Assembly (NCBI GenBank): GCA_902556735.1
Contig: CACDXE010000003.1
Coordinates: forward strand, 83,817-147,816
Length of the DNA: 64,000 bases
Source of the DNA: an uncultured Alphaproteobacteria bacterium
Lineage (GTDB): Bacteria > Pseudomonadota > Alphaproteobacteria > HIMB59
Direction: 5' to 3'
Shown here: one piece after another, positions 20,993 through 27,410 of the stretch
How positions within the stretch are numbered: the stretch's first letter is position 1
Layout of the letters: every line of letters begins with the position of its first letter
The notes under the pieces: model-generated
Told to the model about the DNA's origin: nothing
The model's database searches: none
Seen by the model: only the letters and a program-made list of their open reading frames with translations
Program-made: the position numbers and the translations under genes

Positions 20993-21066
20993 GGCCCGCT
21001 GGCAGATTGGTTATGCAGAGGACTGCAAATCCTTGTAGCTCGGTTCGATTCCGGGGTGGGCCTCCA
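20993..21066 (+). tRNA. tRNA-Cys(GCA)
   Basis: GGCCCGC acceptor pairs with GTGGGCC; anticodon arm GAGGA-CT-GCA-AA-TCCTT; GGTTCGATTCC T-arm; encoded CCA. Confidence 0.97.
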
Positions 21067-21825
21067 CTACTTCATTTCATCAATTATTTTTTTTAAGGTT
21101 CTTGATGTAAGATCTAGAATTCTTTTTCCTTTATCTGCAGTGGATTTTGTAGGATTGCCAATTATACCTGTCTTGGACAAATCTTTTGTATTCCAAGCTC
21201 TTTTAATTGTTCTTTCATAAGAAATTATTTTTTTAGATTTAAAGTCAGATGAGAGTTTGTTTCTTTTAATTTTATTTAATTTTATCAACTCTGGATAAAG
21301 GTGGAGCATTATTGATGTTTCAAATTCACCTCCATGATATCCATAAAGTAATTCCTTTTTTGGAATAATTTTTTCAAAACCTTTAAATAGAAAATAATGT
21401 GCCTTAACAATATCGACAGCTTTATATCTACTTTTAATTTCTTTAGCAGCTATATCTAAGTGACTAATTTGTCCGCCATGACTATTTAAAAAGATAAATT
21501 TTTTATATCTACGAATACATAACTCACCAACTATGCTGATAATATAATCAATATAATTTGTAGAGTTCGAAGATAGAGTGCCCTCAAAGCTATTATGCTC
21601 ACTCGCTGAACCTATAGAGATATTTGGTAGAATTAAATATTTATTAAGTTTGGGATATTTCTTAATAAAAGTATTTAAAATTCCATCTAATATTAATTTA
21701 TCAGTACCTGATGGAAGGTGTTCTCCATGTTGTTCTACAGATGAAAATGGGAGAATAAGTATTTTATTTTTACCTAATTTACTAATGTCTGCTGATGTTA
21801 AATCGGACCAAAACTTTGATAGCAT
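21067..21825 (-). CDS. creatininase family amidohydrolase (ArfB/MftE-like)
   Basis: EQHGEHLPSGTD, SEH, NSHGG, HGGEFETS. Confidence 0.9.
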   Translation of the reverse strand: MLSKFWSDLTSADISKLGKNKILILPFSSVEQHGEHLPSGTDKLILDGILNTFIKKYPKLNKYLILPNISIGSASEHNSFEGTLSSNSTNYIDYIISIVGELCIRRYKKFIFLNSHGGQISHLDIAAKEIKSRYKAVDIVKAHYFLFKGFEKIIPKKELLYGYHGGEFETSIMLHLYPELIKLNKIKRNKLSSDFKSKKIISYERTIKRAWNTKDLSKTGIIGNPTKSTADKGKRILDLTSRTLKKIIDEMK

Positions 21826-21854
21826 AAGTGATATTTAACATTTATATAATTATT

Positions 21855-22817
21855 ATGGAAACTTATTCTCTATGGCTTAAGAATGAAAATAAACCAATTA
21901 TTAAGAAAAAAATACTAAGCTATAAAAAAAATTCTAAAACTGTTCTTGTAAAAACTCTTTATTCAGGAATTAGTAAGGGCACTGAGAGATTAGTAGCATC
22001 TGGTAATATTAGCAAAGATCAGTTCGATATAATGAAATCTCCTTTTCAAGAGGGATCTTTTTCTTTTCCAATTAAATACGGTTACATTAATGTTGGTAAA
22101 ATAGTTGAGGGCCCAAAAAAATATTTAAATAAAAATACATTCTGCCTTTACCCCCATCAGTCACTATTTAAGATTGATATAAATAATGTGAATATTTTAA
22201 AAGGTAATGATGATATTCGAAAATATTTACTAACAGCAAATATGGAAACAGCTATTAATATCTTTTGGGATACTCAAGCAAAATTAAATAACAAAATATT
22301 GATAATAGGGATGGGCTCTGTTGGTATTTTAACTGCCTACTATTATAAATTACTAAAATTTAAAAATGTCTTTATTACTGACATAAATATTAAAAAGAAG
22401 AAATTTGCAAATATTTTAGGACTAAAATTTATTAATTTTAAAAAAATTAAAGACTTAGATGTTATAATTAATACAACATCTAATTATGATGTATTAAACC
22501 AATCACTAAAAAAATTAAATTTAGAGGGAAAATTTATTGAGGCTAGTTGGTATGGAAATAGAAAAGGTCATATAAATTTAGGAGGTAATTTTCACTCAAA
22601 GAGATTAAAAATTATTGGTTCTCAAGTTTCAAATATTCCAAAGTATTTATCAAAAAAATATGATTATAAAAAGAGATTGAATTTAGCAATTAATGCTTTA
22701 TCTAATAACCAGCTTCTTAAATTAATAAACACAGAAAGTGACTTTCAGGACTTAGAGAAAGATTATATTTCAATATTAAATAATCCAGAAAGCATAATGC
22801 ATGCTATAAAGTATTAA
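21855..22817 (+). CDS. medium-chain (Zn-binding ADH-like) dehydrogenase
   Basis: LYSGISKGTE, KYGYINVG, METAIN, GMGSVG, SWYG, FHSKRL..SQV. ATG 21855 preferred over GTG 21828. Confidence 0.85.
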   Translation: METYSLWLKNENKPIIKKKILSYKKNSKTVLVKTLYSGISKGTERLVASGNISKDQFDIMKSPFQEGSFSFPIKYGYINVGKIVEGPKKYLNKNTFCLYPHQSLFKIDINNVNILKGNDDIRKYLLTANMETAINIFWDTQAKLNNKILIIGMGSVGILTAYYYKLLKFKNVFITDINIKKKKFANILGLKFINFKKIKDLDVIINTTSNYDVLNQSLKKLNLEGKFIEASWYGNRKGHINLGGNFHSKRLKIIGSQVSNIPKYLSKKYDYKKRLNLAINALSNNQLLKLINTESDFQDLEKDYISILNNPESIMHAIKY

Positions 22818-22818
22818 A

Positions 22819-23226
22819 ATGTATTCAATTACTGTTCGAAATAATATTTTAATTGCACATTCTCTCCCGGGTGAGGTTTTTGGACCAGCACAGAATATGC
22901 ATGGAGCGACCTACATAGTTGATGCAGAGTTTTATGCAAAAGAGATTAACAAATATAACATTATTATGGATCTCGGGGTTGTAACAGAAATTCTCTCTGA
23001 TGTATTAAAATTTTATAGTTATAAAAATTTAGACGAAGTTGAAGAATTTAAAAATATTATTACCTCTACGGAATTTCTTGCTAAAGATATTTTTGACAGA
23101 ATATGCGATAAATTACAAAAAGATTACATAGAAGATTTTAACAAGTTGCATAAAATTAAAATTATTTTAACTGAGTCAAATGTAGCTTGGGCTTCTTATG
23201 AACAAGAGATCAGTAATACACAATAA
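22819..23226 (+). CDS. 6-pyruvoyl-tetrahydropterin synthase family protein (COG0720, PTPS-IV-like)
   Basis: AHSLPGEVFGPAQNMHGATY, NLDE, TEFLA, LTES..AWA. It lacks the QueD Cys/HGH signature. Confidence 0.88.
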   Translation: MYSITVRNNILIAHSLPGEVFGPAQNMHGATYIVDAEFYAKEINKYNIIMDLGVVTEILSDVLKFYSYKNLDEVEEFKNIITSTEFLAKDIFDRICDKLQKDYIEDFNKLHKIKIILTESNVAWASYEQEISNTQ

Positions 23227-24241
23227 ATCTTATTATTTTATTTATCCGGGTGATATTAATACAAAAACAGGTGGTTACATTTATGAAAAAAATATATTAA
23301 AAAGAGCAAAAAAAATTAAATTCAATTTAAATGCTATCAAACTTGCTAACAGCTTTCCCTTTCCTAAAGAAAATGACTTAAAAAATCTAAAAAAAACTTT
23401 AGAAAAATTACCTGATAATGCGGTACTAATTTTTGATGGATTAGTTTTTGAGTGTATTGATAGTATAATAAACTATCTAGATAGATTTGTAGTAATAGCT
23501 CTTATACACCACCCTCTTTATCTAGAATTTAATGGTAATCAAAGTCAATTTTTTCTTAAGAACGCTAAAAAATTATATAAGAAAACGAAAAAAATAATTG
23601 TCACTTCAAATGATACAAAACAACTAATTTTTGAAAAATTTAAAATTAATAAGCGTAAAATTCAAGTTGTAGAGCCTGGAATAGAAAAATTAAGAAAATA
23701 TAAATATAAAAGGGATAAAAATATAAATTTACTATCTGTGGGAAGTATTATTGAGAGAAAAAATTATCATTATCTGTTAAACGAATTAAGATACATGGAT
23801 AAAATAAAATTAAATATTGTAGGAGATATAACTAGAGAGAGTAAATACTATAATAGATTACTAAAAATTATAAATAATTATAGATTAAGTAAAAAAGTTA
23901 AGTTTCATAGTAATGTATCGACTAATTTACTATCAAAACTATATTCTAAGTGTGACTTCTATGTCTCAGTAAGTAAATATGAAGGTTTTGGCATGTCACT
24001 TGCTAATGCCCTTCAACTCAAAAAAATGATTATTACATATAAAACTAAAACAATTATGAGTACTCTAAGAAGAGATGGAATTATCTACTTAAATAATTTT
24101 AAAGAAAAAAGTTTATCAAAATTAATTACTAAAAATGCATTTAATTCAGATTTATCAAAAAAATTAACACAAAATAAGAGAAAATTTTTAACACCAACAC
24201 AATCTGGGGATCTTTTTATCAAGATAATAAAAAATGCATAA
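23198..24241 (+). CDS. glycosyltransferase family 4
   Basis: TGGYIY, DGL, LIHHPL, VGSIIERK, YEGFGMSL. Confidence 0.85.
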   Translation: MNKRSVIHNKSYYFIYPGDINTKTGGYIYEKNILKRAKKIKFNLNAIKLANSFPFPKENDLKNLKKTLEKLPDNAVLIFDGLVFECIDSIINYLDRFVVIALIHHPLYLEFNGNQSQFFLKNAKKLYKKTKKIIVTSNDTKQLIFEKFKINKRKIQVVEPGIEKLRKYKYKRDKNINLLSVGSIIERKNYHYLLNELRYMDKIKLNIVGDITRESKYYNRLLKIINNYRLSKKVKFHSNVSTNLLSKLYSKCDFYVSVSKYEGFGMSLANALQLKKMIITYKTKTIMSTLRRDGIIYLNNFKEKSLSKLITKNAFNSDLSKKLTQNKRKFLTPTQSGDLFIKIIKNA

Positions 24242-25022
24242 ATTTAATAATGATTGGCTATTTCTTCGAGAGAAAATTGATAAAGTTTCAAGAAATAAAA
24301 AAATTATAGAAAAAATTAATAAATATTTTCAAGACTACAAAACATTGTCTATTGCTGATTTAGGTTGTGGAACAGGTTCCAACTATAGATATTTGTACCC
24401 CAAACTTAAAAAAAGACAATCATGGGATATGATAGACATATCATTTGAGTCAATTAAAGAATTTAAGAAAAAAACAAATAATAAGAATAAGATTATAAAT
24501 ATAAATTATAAAAAATTTGATTTAATCAAAAATATAAAAAGTTTTAAATTCGAAAAATACGATATTATTACAGGATCTGCGTATTTAGATATAATGCCAA
24601 AAAATTGGTATTCAGAATTTAAAAAACAAAATCTAAATACAAAAGTTATATATTTTTCAATTAATTATGATGGATTTTTTAAATTTTTACCAAAACATAA
24701 AAATGACCAATACGTTTTAAGTTTATTTAATAAAGATCAGGAGTCAGATAAAGGTATTGGGCAAAAAGCAGTTGGTAAAAACTGTAGTCAAATAATTAAT
24801 AAATTGTTTTCTAAGTCACATAAAACATTTGTTTTTGACTCGAGTTGGAATGTATCAAAGAATAAAAAATTTCAAAATATGTTTTTAGATTTTTGTGAAA
24901 ATGTACTTGAAAAAAATAAGATATCATTAGATAGATGGTTAGATTTTAGAAGGGAAAATGTTAAAAAAAATAAATCAAAATTATTTCTAAGAAATAAAGA
25001 TTTTTTAGCTTTAAAACTCTAA
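24234..25022 (+). CDS. class I SAM-dependent methyltransferase-like protein
   Basis: WLFLRE N-terminus, DLGCGTGSN, GSAYLD, NYDG. Confidence 0.8.
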   Translation: MHKFNNDWLFLREKIDKVSRNKKIIEKINKYFQDYKTLSIADLGCGTGSNYRYLYPKLKKRQSWDMIDISFESIKEFKKKTNNKNKIININYKKFDLIKNIKSFKFEKYDIITGSAYLDIMPKNWYSEFKKQNLNTKVIYFSINYDGFFKFLPKHKNDQYVLSLFNKDQESDKGIGQKAVGKNCSQIINKLFSKSHKTFVFDSSWNVSKNKKFQNMFLDFCENVLEKNKISLDRWLDFRRENVKKNKSKLFLRNKDFLALKL

Positions 25023-25841
25023 ACTTACTATTATTTCTTCACCAAATTTATAAATTTTATTTTTTGTTCTAATTACTTTTTTTAAATTTGTTATAGGTTT
25101 TATATTTATAGAATTAATACCAGAACCAATTATTGTAGGTGCTATTATAAATTGCATAATATCTAATAATTTATTCTCAAGAAATTTAGATATAGTTTTA
25201 GAACCACCTTCTACTAATACGAACTTAAAACCTAAATTATTTATATGTTTGTGTATAAGATTTGTGAAGTTTCTTTCAGGTAATTTATAAATTTGTGTAT
25301 TTTTTAAATTCTTTTTAATATTAGAGTGTGTAAATATGATATTTGAAAAACCATCTTTAAATATTTGATAGTTATTTGTTAATTTTAGAGACGGATCTAT
25401 AATTATCCTCTGAGGATTTGAGCCCTTAATTGCTCTTGTAGTGAGCAAGGGATTATCTTTTTTTATTGTATTTACACCAACTATAACTGCATCACACACT
25501 GAACGAAGACTATGAAGGTATGAAATACTATTTTTATCATTAATGTAATGAGAATTGCCGTTTAAAAGTGCAATTTTACCGTCTAAGCTTTGCCCAATTT
25601 GACCGATATAGAATTTTTTTTTTATCATCAATATTGGTAACAAAATTTGTGCTATTTCATTTATTTTTTTTTCAATCTTACAATTAAAATTAACGCCATT
25701 TTTATCAATTAAAATATGATTGGTTTTAGAATGTTGACTAAGTACAAACGATTTGTTAATTAAATCAATTCTTAAGATATTTGATTTTTTTTGTTTTTTT
25801 ACAAATTCAAATAGTGAAGAAATATTATGCTTTGTTATCAT
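25011..25841 (-). CDS. RibD C-terminal reductase domain protein (no deaminase domain)
   Basis: GQSLDGKIA, DAVIVGVNT..DNPLLT, VEGGSKT, IAPTIIGSG. Confidence 0.87.
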   Translation of the reverse strand: MITKHNISSLFEFVKKQKKSNILRIDLINKSFVLSQHSKTNHILIDKNGVNFNCKIEKKINEIAQILLPILMIKKKFYIGQIGQSLDGKIALLNGNSHYINDKNSISYLHSLRSVCDAVIVGVNTIKKDNPLLTTRAIKGSNPQRIIIDPSLKLTNNYQIFKDGFSNIIFTHSNIKKNLKNTQIYKLPERNFTNLIHKHINNLGFKFVLVEGGSKTISKFLENKLLDIMQFIIAPTIIGSGINSINIKPITNLKKVIRTKNKIYKFGEEIIVSLEF

Positions 25842-25882
25842 TTTTCATCTGTATCAAGTACTATTGAGTATATATATAGTCT

Positions 25883-27001
25883 ATGAGTTTAAAATCAAAT
25901 TTTGGCACATTTATTGATAGAGCTATCAATGAGCTTAGAACCGGAAGACCAATAGTTATTAAAGAAAATAAAAATTATTGGATGTTCTTTAATATTGAAC
26001 ATTCGGACAATAAAATTCTAAATCAATTCAATCAATACCTACAAAAAGACAAATATCTTTTAATCACAAAACAAAAAGCAAAATCAATATTTGAAAATAA
26101 ATTATCAACAAATATTTATTTAAAAATAAATAAAAAAATATCAAACAAATCTTTATTAAGTTTATTCATTAACCCTTTATCTGATCAAAATAAAATATTA
26201 TTTAAAGATGAGCCTTATATCAAAAGTAAAGAGTTCCATAATGTCTGTTTAGATATAGCCAAAAATGCGAAGGTAATACCATCACTTGTATTTAAAAAAA
26301 TTAATTCTAAATACTATAAAAATATTGATAATCTAATATTACAACTTGGTCTATTAAGATTTAACCATAAAGAGTTAAAAAATCAGAATAAATTTATAAC
26401 TAATAGTATCAGATTAGTTTCAAGTGCAAATGTGCCCTTACCAAATGTTGCATCTACTACATTTAATATTTTTAAGTCATATATTGGTGCTAGAAGACAT
26501 ATCGCGATCATAATTAAACCAAAAAATTTAAAACAACCAACAAACCTTAGAATTCACTCAGCTTGTTTTACTGGGGATATATTTCACTCTAGAAAATGCG
26601 ATTGCGGAGAACAATTAAATAATTCTTTAAACTATATGGTAAAAAATAAAGGGGGTATTATCCTTTATTTAGATCAAGAAGGGAGAGGTATAGGACTAGC
26701 CAATAAAATGAGGGCATATTCTCTTCAGTCAAGAGGCTTGGATACTATTGATGCTGATCACAACATAGGTTTTTTAGATGATGAAAGAGATTTTAATATT
26801 GCCGCTAAGATACTTAAGTTATTAAAAGTAAATAAAGTCAATATTATCACAAATAATTTTACAAAAGTCTCTTCTCTTAAAAAAGCTGGTATTAAAATTG
26901 CCAAGCAGATAAATACAAAGCCTACAATTAACAAATTTAATAAGAATTATTTTAAAACAAGAGTAAAAAAAACAGGTTACGGTTTCAAAAATTTAGACTA
27001 A
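25883..27001 (+). CDS. ribA: GTP cyclohydrolase II with a degenerate RibB-like N-terminal domain
   Basis: RIHSACFTGDIFHSRKCDCGEQL, QEGRGIGL, DERD. The N-terminus RAINELRTGRPIV resembles RibB but has no catalytic residues. Confidence 0.88.
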   Translation: MSLKSNFGTFIDRAINELRTGRPIVIKENKNYWMFFNIEHSDNKILNQFNQYLQKDKYLLITKQKAKSIFENKLSTNIYLKINKKISNKSLLSLFINPLSDQNKILFKDEPYIKSKEFHNVCLDIAKNAKVIPSLVFKKINSKYYKNIDNLILQLGLLRFNHKELKNQNKFITNSIRLVSSANVPLPNVASTTFNIFKSYIGARRHIAIIIKPKNLKQPTNLRIHSACFTGDIFHSRKCDCGEQLNNSLNYMVKNKGGIILYLDQEGRGIGLANKMRAYSLQSRGLDTIDADHNIGFLDDERDFNIAAKILKLLKVNKVNIITNNFTKVSSLKKAGIKIAKQINTKPTINKFNKNYFKTRVKKTGYGFKNLD

Positions 27002-27005
27002 AAAT

Positions 27006-27245
27006 TTAGTCAAAGTCTCCTCGTTCTAATCTATCTTCGTATTCATTTGAGGACTCGGAAATAGTGCTAAGCTGTTTTTTGGTCATAATTTTTAGAGTTT
27101 TTTTTATAGCAAGTTGGTAAGTATGTAACTTTTCAACAATATTTCTTTCGCTGGTGTTTCTCATCATTTGACTTAGGGCTCTATTTAGTTCAGTAAGTCT
27201 GCCTAACAACGTATTATCGTCATCATTATCATCATCGTAATACAT
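27006..27245 (-). CDS. hypothetical protein
   Basis: 79-aa ORF with an acidic N-terminus (MYYDDDNDDDN) and helical character. Confidence 0.6.
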   Translation of the reverse strand: MYYDDDNDDDNTLLGRLTELNRALSQMMRNTSERNIVEKLHTYQLAIKKTLKIMTKKQLSTISESSNEYEDRLERGDFD

Positions 27246-27308: not shown

Positions 27309-27410
27309 TTATTTTTTTTTTCTATAAAATAATAATCCAATTATAATTATCCCAATACCTATAATCATTAGAAGTTCACCTGCATTCCAAAACCATATTA
27401 AGAATTCCAT
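27309..27410 (-). CDS. 33-aa small membrane protein
   Basis: Translated by hand: MEFLIWFWNAGELLMIIGIGIIIIGLLFYRKKK*. Starts 4 nt after the CMD gene stop. Confidence 0.6.
   Translation of the reverse strand: MEFLIWFWNAGELLMIIGIGIIIIGLLFYRKKK

Follow-up and report, generated by a model that had tools for sequence, protein, structure and literature searches.

What does a compact run of seven genes beside tRNA-Cys make in a streamlined marine alphaproteobacterium, and why has it been retained? The window, which is the whole 64,000-nt stretch of DNA analyzed here, belongs to a genome (G000) that is 76% complete. An earlier note had described the run as a complete, undescribed pathway to a glycosylated, possibly methylated pterin- or flavin-like molecule. 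All seven open reading frames that it listed were found at their positions and on their strands, intact and abutting or overlapping:

20993..21066, plus strand: tRNA-Cys(GCA), a flanking landmark and variable insertion site, outside the pathway
21067..21825, minus strand: creatininase-family amidohydrolase, predicted FAPy (AFRPP) deformylase (PF02633, 4e-53; metal motifs)
21855..22817, plus strand: MDR dehydrogenase, zinc-ligand-free, BchC-like (TIGR01202, 6e-14, under the cutoff)
22819..23226, plus strand: PTPS-IV T-fold protein (COG0720, FGPAQ; SCO6650, 3d7j, E 2e-34)
23198..24241, plus strand: GT4 glycosyltransferase with a phosphorylated polyol chain as its predicted acceptor (PF00534, 4e-22)
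24234..25022, plus strand: class I SAM-dependent methyltransferase of an unnamed family (PF13649, 1e-7; DLGCGTG motif)
25011..25841, minus strand: RibD C-terminal reductase without deaminase, predicted non-deaminated DARP reductase (PF01872, 4e-29)
25883..27001, plus strand: GTP cyclohydrolase II (GCH II), Tyr type, with N-terminal extension (PF00925, 1e-47)

The intergenic gaps are 29, 1, -29, -8, -12, and 41 nt, counted from ATG 21855 of the dehydrogenase gene (the likelier start; GTG 21828 is possible), and the creatininase stop codon directly abuts the tRNA-Cys gene, in keeping with the neighborhood first described. Pfam matches were obtained to Creatininase, PTPS, Glycos_transf_1, Methyltransf_25, RibD_C, and GTP_cyclohydro2, and a weak one, below the cutoff, to ADH_zinc_N. 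The seven genes are under purifying selection (dN/dS of 0.04 to 0.38 in 27 of 28 gene-pair comparisons, the other being undefined). A promoter scan stayed below the shuffle level (40 against 53.8), and no riboswitch was detected at Rfam gathering scores. Seven RNA-labeled marine runs from four studies contained 0.21 to 0.31 of the sampled words, which is not counted as expression evidence.

Relatives were surveyed in 71 genomes, all of one genus, so that counts over them are not independent. The same layout recurs in five genus relatives and in two genomes of a sister family, where the flanks differ from those of the window; the arrangement is thus not due to chance. Additional genes lie between tRNA-Cys and the creatininase gene in four relatives (G060, G058, G019, and G010). 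Integration at tRNA-Cys was considered and rejected, as no repeat of the tRNA end and no att-like repeat was found in the window. An apparent loss of the cluster with retention of ribA in G020 and G059 was likewise rejected: both contigs end at that point.

The T-fold protein identifies the cluster. Its signature is FGPAQNMHGA, with neither the catalytic Cys nor HGH and with Ala in place of the third His. None of the PTPS-I/II/III (QueD) motifs (CxxxHGH, CxxxxxHGH, and ExxHGH) is matched, and the QueD model TIGR03367 gives 40.7 bits against a cutoff of 89. Across 42 PTPS-IV sequences, H14 (40/42), H28 (42/42), E85 (40/42), E119 (40/42), and A30 (39/42) are conserved. The FGPAQ motif, the PF00925 and PF01872 neighbors, and the similarity to SCO6650 place the protein in COG0720 subfamily IV, as the earlier note had suspected. 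With this query no second PTPS match was found in the 71 genomes, so the separate queD that it had asked for did not appear. The subfamily, its motif, and its GCH II and RibD_C neighbors are already in print (PMC5445326), and the structure of the prototype SCO6650 has been solved (PDB 3D7J); the system is therefore not undescribed. In the open-access papers searched, neither a product nor an assay or knockout phenotype of the cluster was found.

To place the window among other copies, we used a survey of other taxa comprising the 80 best-scoring loci among those scanned, rich in Streptomyces, of which 55 were full-length; these counts, too, are not independent. The genes do co-occur widely: the dehydrogenase-PTPS-GT4-methyltransferase core recurs in about 90% of the 55 full-length loci (dehydrogenase 50, GT4 49, methyltransferase 48), with ribA (39), creatininase (36), and RibD_C (27) being less constant. 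PTPS-IV stood without any cluster in 4/80 loci and on one plasmid. Phosphatases recur near the cluster, IMPase in 7/55 loci and a His phosphatase as well. No viral copies were found with this query, and about 8,700 stored stretches with a PTPS-IV cluster were estimated among GTDB species genomes. The region around SCO6650 in Streptomyces coelicolor, in which SCO6655 is a GCH II paralogue, shares with the window the FGPAQ motif, the GCH II and RibD_C neighbors, and the core. It differs in having a Met-type RibA where the window has the Tyr type, in carrying CDP-alcohol transferase, LPG-synthase-TM, and sulfatase genes that the window lacks, and in that the window's cluster RibA is the only intact one of its genome. 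The run is, in short, a trimmed version of the known PTPS-IV (SCO6650-type) cluster.

What was trimmed bears on the product. A CDP-alcohol phosphatidyltransferase gene is present in 44/55 full-length loci, an LPG-synthase-TM gene in 39/55, and a "sulfatase" gene in 17/55. The first two are missing from the seven-gene run, which leaves the claim of a complete pathway unproven. One explanation is that the cluster really serves to make an envelope decoration or the head group of a membrane phospholipid. The CDP-alcohol transferase would attach a GTP-derived unit to lipid, and after flipping, a sulfatase-family transferase would pass it on; the seven-gene form would then either stop at the soluble precursor or rely on lipid enzymes of the housekeeping set. 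Periplasmic-glucan glucosyltransferase genes adjoining the cluster in seven loci and on one plasmid, and a haloarchaeal copy that retains the CDP-alcohol transferase, point the same way. However, G000, at 76% completeness, has no orthologue of either lipid gene and only weak matches to other CDP-alcohol enzymes (E 4e-6 and 2e-4), and the seven-gene form is kept under selection in two marine families. We consider this explanation unlikely. Since the two lipid genes are at least as common as ribA elsewhere and have no orthologue in G000, the true end product may nevertheless be a lipid.

The presence of ribA raises the question of whether the cluster simply serves riboflavin synthesis. The cluster RibA retains the zinc Cys triad (C228/C239/C241), a Tyr (Y279) aligned with that of E. 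coli RibA, and the catalytic Arg (R302), so the intact motifs reported for it are confirmed. It scores 216.7 bits with NF001591 (cutoff 148), as expected of a DARP-forming GCH II, and is extended at its N terminus by about 170 residues, for which the best NCBIfam match, PRK08815, is below the cutoff. Cluster RibA is present in 43 genomes, a standalone ribA in 12, and both in 1. The standalone gene has been cleanly deleted in the clade, its site being empty in G000 and 5/5 others, and the GCH II domain of the rib-operon RibB fusion is degenerate, with neither Cys triad nor Tyr motif in 4/4 copies read. Apart from the cluster RibA, therefore, no intact GTP cyclohydrolase II was found in the clade. 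In a tree of 31 GCH II domains, the standalone ribA of the genus and the cluster RibAs join (95/94), a tentative grouping as the rows are aberrant in composition.

As the only intact copy found in the lineage, the cluster RibA likely starts riboflavin synthesis too, and a need for riboflavin, and probably folate, partly explains why a streamlined genome retains it. Retention in a minimal oligotroph, which the earlier note had taken as a pointer to a new product, thus loses part of its weight. That the genes do nothing else, the remaining six hitchhiking on an essential ribA, is very unlikely: although the clade has no other intact ribA, a complete ribD-ribE-ribB-ribH operon lies elsewhere in the relatives, purifying selection acts on each of the six partner genes, and both cluster-free and double-ribA relatives exist. 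The earlier note's own ground for refutation, that these are the genome's only ribA and ribD, thus holds for ribA, the only intact GCH II found, but not for ribD, since the RibD_C is not the sole RibD. Furthermore, all three cluster-bearing genomes of the sister family have a separate 198-residue ribA, that is, a second ribA beside the cluster, which argues that the cluster has a purpose of its own. The lack of ribE and ribH, correctly reported for the cluster and extending to G000, is an assembly gap, and host riboflavin auxotrophy was rejected: ribH is present in 11/11 near-complete relatives, and contig C7 starts just downstream of the operon's place. A possible parallel exists in Haloferax volcanii, where HVO_1284 (ArfA) presumably lies within the PTPS-IV cluster. 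Its deletion causes riboflavin auxotrophy (table, PMC8305020), and a PTPS-IV cluster of Haloarcula includes an enzyme of this class; one cyclohydrolase, there a GCH III rather than a GCH II, may thus serve riboflavin as well.

The RibA type also bears on the creatininase. Met occupies the Tyr position in 32/54 cluster RibAs, and Met-type GCH II is said, in work by Spoonamore from 2006, to be FAPy-forming; the window enzyme has Tyr and is thus not of the SCO6655 type. Creatininase accompanies 40/41 Met/His/Leu-type cluster RibAs (32/32 of the Met type), is absent from 3/12 Tyr-type loci, and is missing from the closed genome G001. A Tyr-type RibA should have no need of it. The window protein has the creatininase fold with the metal ligands expected of an ArfB/BrbF formamidase, its E31/H33/D42/H116/E167 motifs aligning with solved creatininases. 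Creatininase-family FAPy deformylases are documented, and ArfB/BrbF AFRPP formamidases share with the window protein both family and linkage to a GTP cyclohydrolase; in the same study, two homologues of greater distance did not complement (PMC9478397). Unlike ArfB/BrbF, the window's kind is dispensable for riboflavin in G001, and its formamidase role is predicted.

The RibD_C protein has no Pfam match to a deaminase domain, and Q81 occupies a site that is Lys in bifunctional RibDs and Asn in the archaeal DARP reductases. That site is Gln in 20, His in 6, and Ser in 2 of 28 cluster RibD_C sequences and Lys in 2/2 rib-operon RibDs. We take the Lys site to be that of uracil recognition and Glu85 of the PTPS to anchor the 2-amino-4-oxo edge. 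The Gln or His replacing Lys in 26/28 sequences, together with the retained Glu85, points to a non-deaminated substrate. Like MJ0671/ArfC and Rib7, the archaeal and fungal DARP reductases, the protein has a single domain, no Lys, and the phosphate-binding Arg and EGG. Its residues fit the archaeal type, but it differs in having Gln or His rather than Asn, in scoring below the TIGR01508 cutoff (84 against 186 bits), and in co-occurring with a bifunctional RibD.

The remaining core enzymes are consistent with tailoring of such a substrate. Zinc MDR alcohol dehydrogenases bind catalytic zinc through a Cys/His ligand pattern. The earlier label of Zn-ADH-like fits the fold (MDR; model pLDDT 94.8; nearest to butanediol, glucose, and polyol dehydrogenases at 11 to 16% identity) and fails on zinc: across 38 family sequences SxGTE is invariant, no Cys is conserved, and invariant Ser and Tyr occupy the zinc-ligand places. 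The GT4 family profile is nearest 6kih (5e-41), 3c4q (3e-32), and 7qsg (9e-32), enzymes for phosphorylated polyols, and such an acceptor is predicted; the known tetrahydrobiopterin glucosyltransferase 5ze7 is a poor match (2e-11). The methyltransferase (model pLDDT 95.5) has no close solved relative and carries Asn near the C terminus where at least 90% of the family has His. Structure searches with the dehydrogenase and methyltransferase returned folds and no substrate.

With moderate confidence, we propose from these sequence features that the cluster likely makes a soluble, glycosylated, methylated 2-amino-4-oxo pterin-type molecule from GTP and that its RibA likely also feeds riboflavin and folate. 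The product class first suggested would thus stand as the likeliest, as a glycosylated, methylated GTP-derived molecule. RibA would convert GTP to DARP (2,5-diamino-6-ribosylamino-4-pyrimidinone 5'-phosphate), and the creatininase would remove formyl from any escaped FAPy intermediate. RibD_C would reduce DARP to the ribityl form with no deamination, which would keep the 2-amino group and commit the intermediate away from riboflavin. The dehydrogenase may then oxidize a secondary alcohol of the side chain, the Cys-less T-fold protein may close the second ring while holding the 2-amino-4-oxo edge via Glu85, and GT4 may place a sugar on the polyol chain, which is still phosphorylated at that point. 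The final steps would fall to the methyltransferase and to a phosphatase encoded outside the cluster; in the larger versions found elsewhere, a lipid anchor would follow. The step order is loose, given that RibD_C occurs in only 27/55 loci and creatininase is missing from 3/12 Tyr-type loci.

Two other fates of GTP-derived rings were weighed against this pathway. Deformylases, dehydrogenases, glycosyltransferases, and methyltransferases are typical of disposal chemistry, and nucleobase-type transporters flank one plasmid copy, as expected if the cluster salvaged or detoxified damaged guanine nucleotides or imported pterin or flavin fragments. Yet 39/55 loci have a linked GTP cyclohydrolase, either GCH II or, in the Haloarcula cluster, GCH III, the sister family has it in duplicate, and no transporter is a regular member, so that we give salvage little credence. 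Coenzyme F420 is a product of actinomycetes and haloarchaea, two groups in which the cluster occurs, and requires a deaminated ring. CofG was above the cutoff in 0/5 near-complete relatives, four of them cluster-bearing (4/14 in a control), and no cof gene recurs next to the cluster. A role of PTPS-IV in F420 synthesis, stated in one sentence without data and citing unpublished work (PMC5041015), is hence highly improbable.

The cluster RibA may also supply folate synthesis. FolE was found in 0/71 and 0/60 genomes and FolE2 in 0/10 (the sister family being outside this count); folB, folK, and folP are present, and no GCH IA or IB was found. A second TrpF-family gene is present in exactly the same 46/71 genomes as folP and adjoins folK wherever folK was found, beside a folK-folB-folP-pabCAB group; in G000 it lies on contig C2 at 131076-131738. 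Its product scores 33.5 bits with PF00697 (cutoff 22.7), and C12 and D136 are invariant in 11 sequences; TrpF employs a catalytic Cys and Asp. Chlamydia RibA and TrpF together make dihydroneopterin monophosphate, bypassing FolE and FolQ (PMC4161248). The folB/folK/folP genes, the lack of GCH IA/IB, an intact RibA, and a TrpF-family isomerase are common to both. The Chlamydia enzyme, however, is a single promiscuous TrpF, found by screening and encoded outside the folate cluster. In the present lineage, by contrast, folK has a second and divergent TrpF paralogue tail-to-tail with it, canonical trpF is elsewhere, pabABC is canonical, the host is free-living, and the bypass activity is predicted. 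The paralogue is probably a dedicated form of the Chlamydia bypass. Salvage of pterins might also make up for the missing FolE. No second TrpF/folate case was found in the open-access papers searched.

Alternatively, PTPS-IV might itself stand in for FolE, carrying DARP through the later half of the GTP cyclohydrolase I reaction to dihydroneopterin, which would agree with the lack of FolE and FolE2, with folP in 37/43 cluster-RibA genomes, and with a T-fold bearing two His and an anchoring Glu. We regard this as quite unlikely. G010 (93% complete) has the cluster and neither folP nor folK, all five sister-family genomes without PTPS have a complete folate operon that includes the TrpF paralogue, folP tracks that paralogue exactly rather than PTPS-IV, and GT4 and the methyltransferase would be unexplained.

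With the TrpF paralogue as the folate enzyme, DARP would be split three ways: to RibD/RibH/RibE, to the paralogue (dihydroneopterin phosphate and folate), and to the cluster. We tentatively suggest that, in a lineage abundant in the ocean, one GCH II in the cluster is the single gateway to three pathways, namely, riboflavin, FolE-free folate via a dedicated TrpF paralogue, and a glycosylated, methylated molecule of pterin type, a new cofactor or pigment arising from Cys-less T-fold ring closure. Within that suggestion, and with the same caution, the TrpF route might be an order-wide, free-living form of a bypass shown so far only in Chlamydia. The cluster itself is known; the dependence on a sole RibA and the folate TrpF paralogue are new here. 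By taking the place of a housekeeping gene, an accessory cluster has become fixed in a streamlined genome. The cluster is very common, and of its versions the seven-gene one, which has no membrane proteins, should be the simplest to express. If these proposals are true, the TrpF paralogue would be an enzyme dedicated to making folate without FolE, and metabolic models that call these bacteria folate-pterin auxotrophs would need correction.

Seven open reading frames (ORFs) lie beside tRNA-Cys at window positions 21067 to 27001, where the earlier note had placed them, with intergenic gaps of 29, 1, -29, -8, -12, and 41 nt. Profile matches recovered the same families that it had assigned: creatininase, dehydrogenase (ADH), PTPS-IV, GT4, methyltransferase, RibD_C, and RibA (GTP cyclohydrolase II [GCH II]). 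Each gene is 21 to 29% GC, which is low, though not without parallel in the window. Comparison with four relatives gave dN/dS values of 0.04 to 0.38 in 27 of 28 cases (one was undefined), with dS close to saturation for the two most distant relatives. The cluster is a real feature of a known kind. The 3′ side of tRNA-Cys (window 21066/21067; L010:12876-14366 and L014:3709-6107 in relatives) is a variable insertion site, holding one to four unrelated ORFs in the relatives G060 and G058 and none in the host assembly (G000; 1.16 Mb, 76% complete). Two small ORFs, open in G027, G058, and G060, lie between ribA and an AhpD-like gene:

Window 27006-27245, minus strand: ORF of 79 aa with an acidic start
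Window 27309-27410, minus strand: hydrophobic ORF of 33 aa

Conserved residues offer clues to the chemistry. In the window RibA, the Cys triad, Tyr279, and Arg302 are all conserved. Among 54 cluster RibAs, the Tyr279 position holds Met in 32, Tyr in 12, His in 8, and Leu in 1 (1 unread); we take the Met type to be FAPy forming (FAPy, the formylated intermediate). Creatininase accompanies 40/41 non-Tyr and 9/12 Tyr cluster RibAs, a distribution that would be expected of a FAPy deformylase. RibD_C has Gln81, in contrast to Lys in bifunctional RibDs and Asn in two archaeal DARP reductases (DARP, 2,5-diamino-6-ribosylamino-4-pyrimidinone 5′-phosphate, is the RibA product); Gln or His occupies this position in 26 of 28 cluster copies and Lys in both rib-operon RibDs. 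PTPS-IV retains two His residues, Glu85, and Glu119 and lacks the Cys and third His. Given the roles in substrate recognition that we assume for them, the RibD_C and PTPS-IV residues together point to a substrate retaining its 2-amino-4-oxo edge. The dehydrogenase model has an MDR fold, nearest to diol and sugar dehydrogenases, and lacks zinc ligands. The GT4 profile lies nearest to 6kih, 3c4q, and 7qsg (sucrose-phosphate synthase and MshA types), with biopterin glucosyltransferase far below, and the methyltransferase has no close relative among solved structures. Overall, we somewhat favor a glycosylated, methylated pterin-type molecule as the product; any exact order of steps is doubtful. 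Creatininase-family deformylases have been demonstrated (PMC9478397).

The nearest structure to the window PTPS-like protein is SCO6650 (3d7j; E value of 2e-34), and the protein carries the FGPAQ signature, which PMC5445326 assigns to PTPS-IV (561 sequences, with PF00925 and PF01872 neighbors). A role for PTPS-IV in F420 synthesis has been claimed in print, on unpublished work (PMC5041015); no CofG above the cutoff was found in any of five relatives' genomes tested, and such a role is unlikely here. A GTDB genome scan (5/64 parts) confirmed 592 relatives. In the 55 loci with full flanks among the best 80 (a Streptomyces-rich sample; 25 shorter loci excluded), the neighbors were ADH (50), GT4 (49), methyltransferase (48), creatininase (36), RibD_C (27), "sulfatase" (17), and inositol monophosphatase (7). 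CDP-alcohol phosphatidyltransferase occurs in 44/55 of these loci, and LPG-synthase-TM and ribA in 39/55 each. That lipid genes are commoner than ribA, that RibD_C and creatininase are optional in other clusters, and that F420 has been put forward all count against the pterin-type reading. No orthologue of the transferase, LPG-synthase-TM, or sulfatase was found in the 76%-complete G000; the window thus carries the soluble core together with the enzymes that feed it.

The family also occurs in other settings. Six of seven annotated plasmid regions carry this cluster and one a lone PTPS-IV; a Haloarcula copy includes GTP cyclohydrolase III. Five loci (L057, L058, L092, L109, and L022) have no cluster partner within 9 kb of PTPS-IV, and six proteins of 373 to 855 aa (P0125, P0126, P0130, P0135, P0136, and P0141) contain three or four PTPS-IV-like stretches each, as tandem T-fold forms. 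A histidine phosphatase adjoins the cluster in G019 (L018:6454-6996) and related marine loci (L042 to L044, by creatininase); the G000 cluster has none adjacent, and in other taxa the phosphatases are of the IMPase or PAP2 type. Genes for MdoH-like periplasmic-glucan glucosyltransferases adjoin the cluster in several proteobacteria (L049, L052, L054, L081, L083, L097, L112, and L026).

The only ribA in G000 is the cluster copy. Neither ribE nor ribH was found in G000; ribH occurs in 49/71 genus genomes, including 11/11 near-complete ones. The canonical rib genes that the earlier note proposed seeking elsewhere form a ribD-ribE-ribB-ribH operon in relatives, away from the cluster and lost off a contig end in G000. 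In this operon RibB is fused to a GCH II domain missing the Cys triad and Tyr motif in 4/4 read. Across the 71 genomes, intact ribA is of two kinds, a cluster copy in 43 and a standalone copy, whose neighbors are rmuC and an aminomethyltransferase gene, in 12 (9 assigned by reading the locus; the other 3 and several contig-edge cluster copies were classed by score and length), and only G010 has both.

L009:4804-5877 and L005:5205-6281: RibB fusion with a degenerate GCH II domain that has no Cys triad; it sits in the rib operon across the whole genus
G000:C4:79643-80228 (outside the window): deletion site of standalone ribA, between aminomethyltransferase and rmuC

The standalone site is cleanly empty in G000 (∼1.1 kb deleted relative to G005), and the gene is also missing from it in five of five other cluster-bearing genomes. 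Because standalone ribA is deleted and the RibB-fused GCH II is degenerate, riboflavin synthesis in this clade probably starts with cluster RibA.

Folate synthesis appears to draw on the same enzyme. With positive controls detected, FolE (GCH I) was found in 0/71 genus genomes and FolE2 in 0/10, and folP and folK are present in 46/71 and 45/71. Outside the window, G000 carries a second TrpF-family gene beside the folate genes (G000:C2:131076-135853; L036), a candidate dedicated RibA-coupled folate entry enzyme:

G000:C2:131695-135853: pabB-pabA-pabC-folP-folB-folK operon
G000:C2:131076-131738: second TrpF-family gene, tail to tail with folK

Canonical trpF lies on a different contig. Of the 71 genomes, the 46 with folP are precisely those that carry the paralogue; it adjoins folK in 45/45 folK genomes (as a short open frame in one, G053) and retains the TrpF Cys and Asp. 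It is present in 0/12 genomes with standalone ribA, which also lack folP and folK. In the sister family, it scores >220 bits in 43/60 genomes, FolE is found in 0/60, and it flanks the same folate operon in G269 and in 5/5 PTPS-free genomes read; being kin, these genomes make the folate counts two families rather than 130 observations. At 1e-30, G269 was the sole match in a sample of 300 class genomes. In Chlamydia, TrpF converts the RibA product to dihydroneopterin monophosphate (PMC4161248), whereas here a dedicated second TrpF would take that step, a conversion that by analogy we consider likely. Such a route argues that PTPS-IV is not the source of free dihydroneopterin. No second case of a TrpF/folate bypass was found in the literature searched.

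The seven-gene layout is identical in the sister family, where PTPS is found in 38/60 genomes, all of one genus. Cluster-bearing genomes there keep a separate 198-aa ribA (3/3 tested), so the cluster has its own role. In the proposed mechanism, cluster RibA would make DARP that is divided among riboflavin (very likely), folate (likely), and the cluster's own route. What is new here is the trimmed gene content, the status of the cluster RibA as sole RibA, and the probable linked TrpF/folate bypass.
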